In this document: piece by piece, positions 22,608 to 23,431 of the stretch
Numbering within the stretch: the first letter of the stretch is position 1
How the letters are laid out: each line of letters opens with the position of its first letter
Source of the DNA: an uncultured Gemmatimonadota bacterium
Lineage (GTDB): Bacteria > GCA-2686955
Assembly (NCBI GenBank): GCA_964490075.1
Contig: CAZBBK010000001.1
Location: 124,001-188,000 of the forward strand
Direction of reading: 5' to 3'
Length of the DNA: 64,000 bases
The notes under the pieces: model-generated
What the model was told of the DNA's origin: nothing
What the model saw: only the letters and a program-made list of their open reading frames with translations
Databases searched by the model: none
Program-made: the position numbers and the translations under genes

Positions 22608-22636
22608 TTGACTCAGGCTCTTCGGCCCCGTAGGAT
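22608..22636 (+). promoter_or_regulatory. Sigma70-type promoter
   Basis: TTGACT, 17-nt spacer, TAGGAT. Confidence 0.65.
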
Positions 22637-22690: not shown

Positions 22691-22927
22691 GTGCAAAAGC
22701 AGCATCGTCGCACCACCCTCACATCGACCCCCACCTACCGAATCGACCGCTGCAGCTGCGGCCGCGTCAACCTGGTGGTAGGCGAATCGACCCTCTCGAT
22801 GTGCCCGCATCTGCTCGCCCGCCTGCGCAACGATCTATCGGTGGCGATCCACGAGAACCGCCAGGCTTCCGGCGATGCCGACCCGCTCGATCTGCCCGTG
22901 GATGGGCACATGTTCAGCCTCAACTGA
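22691..22927 (+). CDS. Small hypothetical protein with CxCG motif
   Basis: GGGAG RBS, GTG start, 78 aa, IDRCSCGRVNL..G..TL. Confidence 0.6.
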   Translation: MQKQHRRTTLTSTPTYRIDRCSCGRVNLVVGESTLSMCPHLLARLRNDLSVAIHENRQASGDADPLDLPVDGHMFSLN

Positions 22928-23030
22928 TCGAAGGGCGAATTCCGCTGCGCCGTCGCGATCGGGTGAGATAGACTTGTAGGTTCCGATGAGCAAGGGTCAT
23001 CCGAGTCCACCAGATCGACGACAAGGCGCG

Positions 23031-23171
23031 ATGAGCATCCTCACTCCGATCCTGATACTGGCGGCGTGGCTGGTTCTGAACCGCTACGTGCTTCCGAAGC
23101 TCGGCGTCCCCACCTGAGCGGTCCCCCAGAGCCCTCCGGCGGAGGGCACGCGCAAGAGCGACTGCCGGTAG
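23031..23171 (+). CDS. Small single-TM protein, candidate selenoprotein (in-frame UGA at 23115-23117)
   Basis: MSILTPILILAAWLVLNRYVLPKLGVPT-U-AVPQSPPAEGTRKSDCR*; SECIS-like hairpin at 23131-23147; not in the ORF track. Confidence 0.6.
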
Positions 23172-23181
23172 GAATCCACCC

Positions 23182-23388
23182 ATGCCGATCTTTGATTTTC
23201 GCTGCAAGCAGTGCGGAACGACCTTCGAGGAGCTGCTCCGAAGCGCGGCGGACGATGCCGCCATCGTCTGCCCGGGCTGCGGGTCAGGGGAGAGCGAACG
23301 CCTGATCGGCGCGCCCAACGTGTTGGGCTCGTCGGGCGGCGTCGGTGGCGGCGGCTGCGCGGCCCCACCCGGCGGCGGCTTCACCTGA
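23182..23388 (+). CDS. FmdB-family zinc-ribbon protein; possible Sec at the terminal UGA (read-through to 23397)
   Basis: MPIFDFRCKQCG..FE.L...CPGCGS; Gly-rich tail CAAPPGGGFT-UGA; hairpin at 23406-23419. Confidence 0.85.
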   Translation: MPIFDFRCKQCGTTFEELLRSAADDAAIVCPGCGSGESERLIGAPNVLGSSGGVGGGGCAAPPGGGFT

Positions 23389-23431
23389 GCGGCCTGATTC
23401 GTGCGGCGCCGGTCGGCGCTCTTCTACATCG

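Follow-up and report, generated by a model that had tools for sequence, protein, structure and literature searches.

Positions 23031–23171 of the stretch of DNA analyzed here (64,000 nucleotides (nt) from an uncultured Gemmatimonadota bacterium, hereafter the window) very probably constitute one genuine selenoprotein gene, in which the UGA codon at 23115–23117 is read as selenocysteine (Sec, U); both selenium incorporation and expression are predictions from comparative sequence analysis. The 46-residue product appears to belong to a large family of membrane micro-proteins, unannotated in the libraries searched, most members of which carry a U-x4-C arrangement and a minority C-x4-C. This assignment draws on the Sec machinery of the genome, on the occurrence of TGA at the same place in all homologues listed, on the enrichment of a hairpin of the selenocysteine insertion sequence (SECIS) type downstream of the UGA, and on homologues with Cys at the corresponding position, and thus bears out the initial annotation of the locus, made from the sequence and its open reading frames, as a 46-residue transmembrane selenoprotein.

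An Open Frame across UGA in a Genome with Selenocysteine Machinery

On the plus strand, the reading frame that begins at ATG 23031 encodes MSILTPILILAAWLVLNRYVLPKLGVPT up to position 23114 and, beyond the UGA, continues as AVPQSPPAEGTRKSDCR for 17 further codons before terminating at TAG 23169–23171 (sequence, and translation with TGA as U), exactly as first described. The complete coding sequence has 46 codons (28, Sec as residue 29, and 17) plus the stop, an extent in keeping with homologues of the same architecture and with the base composition of the tail, in which the G+C content at third codon positions (GC3) is 0.94 in frame compared to 0.69 in the other two frames, with neighboring genes at 0.77–0.89. 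The predicted protein would comprise a short N-terminus, one transmembrane helix (residues 4–23, 23040–23099), the motif LPKLGVPT immediately 5′ of the Sec codon (23091–23114), Sec, and a charged 17-residue tail with a Cys near its end (residue 45, codon 23163–23165), a candidate partner of Sec. The helix was placed by AlphaFold2 on an alignment of 114 read-through peptides (A2), which gave coil elsewhere and a mean predicted local distance difference test score (pLDDT) of 73.3. The in-frame ATG at 22986 that had been offered as an alternative start is present in the list of open reading frames, but homologues favor the start at 23031, because members of the family have few residues ahead of the helix.

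Inside the coding sequence of the tail lies the hairpin GCCCUCC-GGC-GGAGGGC (23131–23147, plus strand; stem 23131–23137 paired with 23141–23147, loop GGC at 23138–23140), with 7 base pairs (bp), a 3-nt loop that opens with G, 20 nt between the UGA and the loop, and a folding energy of −12.4 kcal mol–1 as a simple stem-loop; the stem, the spacing, and the leading G that had been reported for it are all found. According to the legend to Figure 2 of PMC13188914, a bacterial SECIS element has a loop of 3–9 nt, a stem of 4–16 bp, G at loop base 1 or 2, 16–37 nt from UGA to loop, and a minimum free energy of ≤ −7.5 kcal mol–1, and the window hairpin lies within all of these limits. Rfam, applied at gathering thresholds across the window, returned one tRNA only and nothing at the hairpin. 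From the anatomy of the locus and from the comparisons below, we infer that the hairpin would recruit SelB with Sec-tRNA(Sec), and that Sec would be inserted at the UGA without termination.

The genome to which the window belongs (5.7 Mb, 136 contigs, 95% complete) encodes SelA (430 bits), SelB (345.6 bits, or 378 bits including in-frame neighbors), SelD (317.9 bits), and a tRNA-Sec that scores 75.2 bits, above the gathering score of 47, and has the anticodon TCA according to ARAGORN, so that the machinery whose presence the initial annotation had left to be checked is there. The SelD gene (G000:C65:32509-33429; locus L151 1501-2460, minus strand) has its own in-frame TGA and translates as ...PAGGUARKLG..., in which the U of GGUARK corresponds to the canonical Sec site, making SelD itself a predicted selenoprotein, and its SECIS, AGGACCUG-GUC-CAGGUCCU, lies 27 nt after the SelD UGA. 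The Sec codon and SECIS of SelD, taken together with the machinery, therefore indicate that UGA is decoded as Sec in this organism, by way of a hairpin built like that of the micro-gene. We note that the SelA match (G000:C68:8801-9925) lies inside an open frame of 889 residues, approximately twice the usual length, which may be a fusion or merely a long upstream open frame in GC-rich DNA.

Recurrence of the UGA, the Tail, and the Hairpin across the Family

A single locus of this kind proves little, and the significance of the observations above therefore comes from comparison, that is, from the recurrence of UGA, tail, and hairpin in 115 listed homologues. A search of 41 related genomes that reads through stops recovered the peptide in two genomes of the same family and in one distant, low-GC genome; in all three, TGA occupies the same position and the frame stays open beyond it. 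On a larger scale, one genome per species (185,579 species) was scanned for the DNA pattern [V/L..]LPKLGVxT followed by TRR, which treats TAA, TAG, TGA, and TGG alike. At least 120 stretches matched, and all counts out of 115 given here are among the matches listed. The final codon of the 120 listed is TGA in 117, TAG in two, TAA in one, and TGG in none; five of them have no hydrophobic helix upstream and were set aside as chance matches, namely the three non-TGA stretches (L046, L047, and L134) and two with TGA (L035 and L072), leaving real members with TGA in 115/115. Homologues that end at this position with UAA or UAG, which the initial annotation had named as evidence that would count against Sec, are thus represented by chance matches only.

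Members share a build of few residues, one helix, W/Y-x-LPKLGVxT, TGA, and a tail of 13–46 residues (median 24) in which S, R, E, and K abound. A Cys stands exactly five codons after the TGA (+5) in 93/115 members, and the tail lacks any Cys in only 2/115. Across the 92 U-x4-C sequences with a tail of at least 14 residues, the codon of this Cys has entropies of 0, 0, and 0.97 at its three bases, Arg occupies +10 in 65/92, and over 14 tail codons the three codon positions have entropies of 1.48, 1.35, and 1.65, with 0.95, 0.55, and 1.68 in the helix. Single-base codon differences between close pairs number 115 synonymous and 113 nonsynonymous. The window falls in a sub-group that reads U-[A/G]VPxP... 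and in which a Cys among the last few residues is common. By record title, carriers are found in Acidobacteriota (many orders), Desulfobacterota and other “Deltaproteobacteria”, including Geobacter, and furthermore in Planctomycetota, Nitrospirota, Armatimonadota (Ca. Fervidibacter), KSB1, Zixibacteria, Eisenbacteria, and others.

With the single 46-residue peptide as a query, only the 28-residue form was recovered, whereas a profile built from A2 retrieved 1429 proteins from a word-indexed collection. Most of the 120 listed among these are 29-residue fragments; most of the longer ones carry W at the Sec position, that is, they were called with a code in which TGA is Trp, and the names, where given, are “hypothetical protein”, “uncharacterized membrane protein”, or, in three cases, “uncharacterized membrane protein YdcZ (DUF606 family)”. 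An exhaustive profile search returned 2052 representatives at E ≤ 0.001. In principle, the frame could be a chance one in GC-rich intergenic DNA and no gene at all, as spurious frames are many in high-GC DNA and no family model matches; given relatives in these numbers, homologues in low-GC genomes, and the strong codon periodicity of the helix part, we regard this as exceedingly improbable. The nearest cluster in the ESM Atlas, a “hypothetical protein” with a score of 0.85, is a lead only. A repetitive 592-residue protein, P0127, also scores highly with the profile through eight copies of ...VLPKMGVRTK... that lack the helix context, and is probably unrelated to the family.

To compare the hairpins, nt 7–54 after the UGA were folded with RNAfold and the loop of the longest stem was taken. 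This loop begins 16–27 nt after the UGA in 109/115 members and has G within its first two bases in 109/115, the commonest loops being GUC (28), GGA (15), GGC (8), and GGU (6). Under a stricter rule (at least 5 bp in the stem, a 3–8-nt loop that opens 16–27 nt downstream of the UGA, and G at loop base 1 or 2), a hairpin is present in 93/115 family members, compared with 10/165 ordinary TGA stops from the same loci and 18/407 internal in-frame coding sites, and the published model, with uninterrupted stems only, yields 75/115, 11/165, and 26/407, respectively. Within the window's sub-group the stems vary at the same place (GCCCUCC/GGAGGGC, UCCUC/GAGGA, UUCCUC/GAGGAA, and CCCCGGCC/GGCCGGGG). Covariation was assessed by scoring an 8-bp helix on a structure-blind MAFFT alignment of 93 U-x4-C sequences against 500 shuffles, where paired cells amount to 67.4% (48.4% in shuffles), double-change cells to 153 (75.6 in shuffles), and the covariation score to 0.371 (0.157 in shuffles), with 0/500 shuffles reaching the observed value in each case. 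An ungapped, codon-anchored version of the test gives 0.586 against 0.417, the maximum over 500 shuffles being 0.46.

The initial annotation had further proposed a search for homologues with Cys aligned to the UGA, and these exist. The top 150 of the 2052 representatives include 138 new proteins, of which 107 have C in the Sec column, 19 W, three S, three R, two G, and one L, while three end there. The Cys forms read ...NRWVLP[WKRA][FL]G[VI]xTCMSGAC..., with a motif similar to that of the Sec forms and with both Cys invariant. In a DNA scan of metagenome contigs for LPWFGVPT-TGN-M, ten loci, some of them near-duplicates, have TGC (seven), TGT (two), or TGA (one), such that a Cys codon occupies the site in 9/10, and hhalign aligns the Sec-form and Cys-form profiles with U on Cys at a probability of 99.8% (E 2.4e-29). 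A scan for the true-Cys motif LPKLGV[PK]TC gave a single, unconfirmed stretch. The Cys forms carry other residues at the K position: K is found there in 130/138 Sec forms, whereas the Cys forms have W in 38, R in 19, K in 18, and A in 15 of 112. Sec forms from Planctomycetota also show R, S, and A at this position. The few database forms with S, R, or L in the Sec column are each one base change away from TGA. One database protein, P0202 (208 residues), joins a Cys-form micro-protein to a thioredoxin domain (PF00085, E 3e-26) in one chain, which reflects either a natural fusion or reading through from one gene into the next.

The W and G entries bear on whether read-through of the UGA inserts a residue other than Sec, be it by near-cognate read-through or through a variant code in which UGA means Trp or Gly, as some pipelines evidently applied such codes when calling the 19 and 2 public proteins concerned. 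We consider this very unlikely. The genome of the window ends ordinary genes with TGA (for example, the downstream FmdB gene, at 23386–23388), the carriers span many phyla, the hairpin conforms to the SelB-type SECIS model and is similar to the SECIS of the genome's own SelD, and the aligned residue in natural homologues is Cys at true TGY codons, not Trp or Gly.

The family also follows the Sec trait. Phylum samples were drawn around a carrier genome and take their phylum name from the record title of that carrier. In the Acidobacteriota sample (around the genome of L031), the family is present in 58/201 genomes, with in-frame TGA in all 59 matches; in the Desulfobacterota sample (around a Syntrophales genome), in 67/151 genomes, with TGA in 67/68 matches and the remaining one stopping short of the site; and in the Planctomycetota sample (around a Pirellulaceae genome), in 20/201 genomes, with in-frame TGA in all 20 matches. 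SelA is encoded in 47/50 Sec-form carrier genomes, compared with 18/41 in a mixed sample of relatives, and the three misses lie in assemblies without stated completeness. In the Acidobacteriota sample, SelA is found in 58/58 carriers and 105/143 noncarriers, or 163/201 overall, a count that includes three genomes flagged as unpublished (G339, G442, and G314, none of them a carrier) and in which related genomes are not independent. On these figures, UGA-containing homologues appear to be confined to Sec-utilizing organisms.

Several observations weigh against the selenoprotein reading and have to be set beside this evidence. The 71-nt region of the window taken alone is not unusually stable (z = −1.29; 21/200 shuffles at least as stable), the median z of the family is −1.1 against mononucleotide shuffles, with values below −2 in 19%, and 40/115 members miss −7.5 kcal mol–1 when the uninterrupted stem alone is counted. 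RNAalifold finds no consensus pairs in the MAFFT alignment, as the register of the hairpin shifts slightly from member to member, and the lower pairing of slid registers in the covariation test (27–43% of cells) must be read with the proviso that the scored structure was derived from one member, which may favor it over its slid versions. Furthermore, the 115 loci were fetched by the motif itself, making its invariance in A2 partly a matter of construction; the motif is shared by distant homologues recovered with other queries (e.g., G020). The homologues come nearly all from metagenome-assembled genomes, related ones of which are not independent. Codon periodicity in the tail is weak compared to the helix, though of the same pattern. 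Finally, while the Sec···Cys pair of the initial annotation holds as a feature of the family, the window's sub-group carries its Cys near the C-terminus instead, and the closest relative, L011, has no Cys in the tail.

One alternative is that translation genuinely stops at the UGA and yields only a 28-residue membrane peptide, with the hairpin serving in regulation or mRNA stability, for instance in translational coupling to FmdB. Gene callers and databases do carry the 28–29-residue form, the window region by itself is of unremarkable stability, and the tail is poorly conserved at the DNA level between close relatives. Sec insertion is, moreover, usually incomplete, such that some truncated peptide is likely made in any case. 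However, an ordinary stop would drift among TAA, TAG, and TGA, yet TGA is retained in every listed member, the low-GC one included; the Cys codon at +5 varies at its third base alone; the Cys forms continue through the same position into the same C-x4-C tail; SelA accompanies the carriers in both of the comparisons above; no U-run terminator follows the hairpin; and the hairpin recurs regardless of which gene lies downstream. We thus consider a true stop unlikely, and retain the reading of the UGA as Sec in what follows.

Relation to Known Selenoproteins

The prototype of bacterial selenoprotein genes with a SECIS inside the open reading frame is E. coli fdhF. Like such SelB-decoded genes, of which SelD of the present genome is an example, the micro-gene has an in-frame UGA, a hairpin within 16–37 nt downstream whose small loop opens with G[G/U] (legend to Figure 2 of PMC13188914), Cys homologues, and a full set of machinery, and the SECIS of SelD shows the same stem-plus-GUC design as the hairpins of the family. 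What sets the micro-protein apart from the known members of this class is that it would be a 46-residue, single-helix membrane peptide without a known fold or domain. In kind, the family appears to be one of SelB/SECIS-decoded selenoproteins, and it stands out through the small size of its members, their membrane anchor, the wide distribution, and the prevalence of Sec over Cys forms. In the account given in PMC13188914, Cys homologues of selenoproteins are usually far more abundant than the Sec forms; unlike that usual pattern, the Sec form of the micro-protein greatly outnumbers the Cys form in the genomes sampled, which, if the reading is right, makes the family a good case for asking why Sec is kept.

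Among described membrane or metal-handling selenoprotein families, the MerT-like mercuric transport protein, the SaoP permease, YeeE/YedE, and the SO_0444 efflux transporter (Table 1 of PMC13188914) resemble the micro-protein in being membrane proteins with Sec beside Cys in a short motif. A further likeness is that the neighborhoods of the micro-protein hold ArsR-type regulators and RND/CusB-type efflux genes. The micro-protein does not match their NCBIfam/Pfam models, however, and with its single helix it could not form a channel by itself. SELENOK and SELENOS, from eukaryotes, span the membrane once and carry Sec in a C-terminal tail that is disordered and lies in the cytosol. Unlike the micro-protein, they have their SECIS in the 3′ untranslated region and Sec at the very C-terminus, and they come from another domain of life; the likeness is one of analogy only. 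DUF2892 (PF11127), the most frequent immediate neighbor of the family and also present in the Cys-form loci L178 and L180, ends in a similar ...CPxxxxLrKLGV at the membrane edge but has two helices, where the micro-protein has one. In two loci with DUF2892 just upstream (L073 1600-1785 and L119 3415-3600), the DUF2892 protein ends in ...WCPMMTFLRKLGV, resembling the ...LPKLGV of the micro-protein. Homology between the two is not supported, with no Pfam hit for the micro-protein at E ≤ 1 and an hhalign probability of 6.6%.

The window peptide, the 114 members, and the Cys forms were each compared with Pfam and NCBIfam release 20.0 (June 2026), with no real match to any family model. Two inventories, Table 1 of PMC9312934 (2022, 87 families) and Table 1 of PMC13188914 (2026, 119 families and subfamilies), likewise include no peptide with a single helix and no T-U-x4-C motif; their “hypothetical” entries now carry NCBIfam accessions or other motifs. 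A full-text search of the literature found no paper with “LPKLGV” and none that pairs a selenoprotein with DUF2892, and among the best 12 of 99 literature matches nothing relevant on small, single-pass bacterial membrane selenoproteins was found. The paper describing deep-Sep states that the method may miss selenoproteins without Cys homologues, and BSepDB is described as a compilation of families reported earlier. A search that relies on Cys homologues would miss the present family because its Cys forms are tiny, unannotated open reading frames and gene callers stop at the UGA. If the reading holds, a new and very widespread family would be added to the bacterial selenoproteome, the first single-helix micro-protein among the families of the 2022 and 2026 inventories (PMC9312934 and PMC13188914), and a blind spot of current methods would be exposed. 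Public databases carry over a thousand 29-residue fragments of the family.

Neighborhoods, Topology, and Possible Function

Across the family, the number of K and R residues per sequence is 4.6 after the helix and 0.45 before it, which, by the positive-inside rule, suggests an N-out/C-in topology with the Sec/Cys pair at the cytoplasmic face of the membrane. A census of the neighbors at 119 Sec-form loci found DUF2892/YgaP-like transmembrane proteins (PF11127), mostly directly upstream, at 17 loci; ArsR-family regulators, often overlapping the start by 1–4 nt, at 15; Redoxin, TlpA, thioredoxin, or DsbD at 13; RND pumps at 12; FmdB at 10, in several phyla; ECF sigma factors with zf-HC2 at 10; and DUF302 and OsmC at five each. 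One Sec-form locus also has a metallo-beta-lactamase-rhodanese protein, and further loci add thioredoxin, CusB-type fusion proteins, rubrerythrin, and the hybrid-cluster protein. The clearest functional context seen for the family is a metagenome contig (L178 963-2625) on which genes for ArsR, a thioredoxin with a membrane anchor, a Cys-form micro-protein of 81 residues that is rich in Cys, and DUF2892 form a compact operon.

From these neighbors we propose, with low confidence, that the micro-protein is a membrane-tethered selenol/thiol pair that is redox-active or binds soft metals. The pair could run through a selenenylsulfide cycle reduced by thioredoxin-like partners, or it could bind soft metals or sulfane sulfur; we give preference to neither reading, and in either case it might act in an ArsR-controlled response to thiol/persulfide or metal(loid) stress. 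Counting on the other side is the heterogeneity of the neighborhoods, in which no partner occurs at more than 17/119 loci and of which the window itself has FmdB only. We see about an even chance that the family is among the commonest selenoproteins of soil and sediment bacteria (approximately 29%, 44%, and 10% of species in the Acidobacteriota, Desulfobacterota, and Planctomycetota samples, respectively), nearly all in the Sec form and overlooked because only a 29-codon frame precedes its UGA, with an ArsR/thioredoxin/DUF2892-associated role in persulfide or soft-metal stress. If so, it may help to explain why the costly Sec machinery is kept in these lineages, and the recurrent neighbors (ArsR, thioredoxin-like proteins, DUF2892, RND pumps, and FmdB) would offer a testable entry into the function of several DUFs.

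In the window, the micro-gene is followed on the same strand by a gene for an FmdB-family zinc ribbon (23182–23388; PF09723 at 59.6 bits with a cutoff of 34.4, TIGR02605 at 57.9 bits with a cutoff of 31.3). The TAG at 23169–23171 overlaps the AGGA located 8 nt ahead of the FmdB ATG at 23182, an overlap that the initial annotation had pointed out without naming the gene, and the gap of 10 nt between the two genes holds no terminator-like site or U-run terminator; the two genes are probably co-transcribed. A tentative promoter-like site, TTGACT-17-TAGGAT, lies upstream at 22608–22636 on the plus strand (consensus scan, one found compared to 0.1 expected). The other genes flanking the micro-gene encode a BNR-like protein, a HEAT/GDSL protein, and a TetR regulator, which are unrelated, FmdB being the one recurrent neighbor that is adjacent here. 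In the relative G003, the FmdB gene 3′ of the micro-protein appears truncated (L011, around 1386-1472), as only its first 18 residues align and the alignment then jumps to the end of the gene.

Two small, overlapping open reading frames upstream of the micro-gene, at 22691–22927 on the plus strand and 22738–23010 on the minus strand, have no family match, and the plus-strand one shows only a 14-residue similarity in L011 (E 0.004). A search of the window's genome for a second copy of the micro-gene found none, making it single-copy there. The stretch 22900–23400 is identical, with 0 differences, in a second sample of the same study, and a 705-nt contig from the same marine metagenome matches the window only at 23089–23125, across the motif and the UGA, with two differences and unrelated flanks, and looks like another organism's copy of the family.

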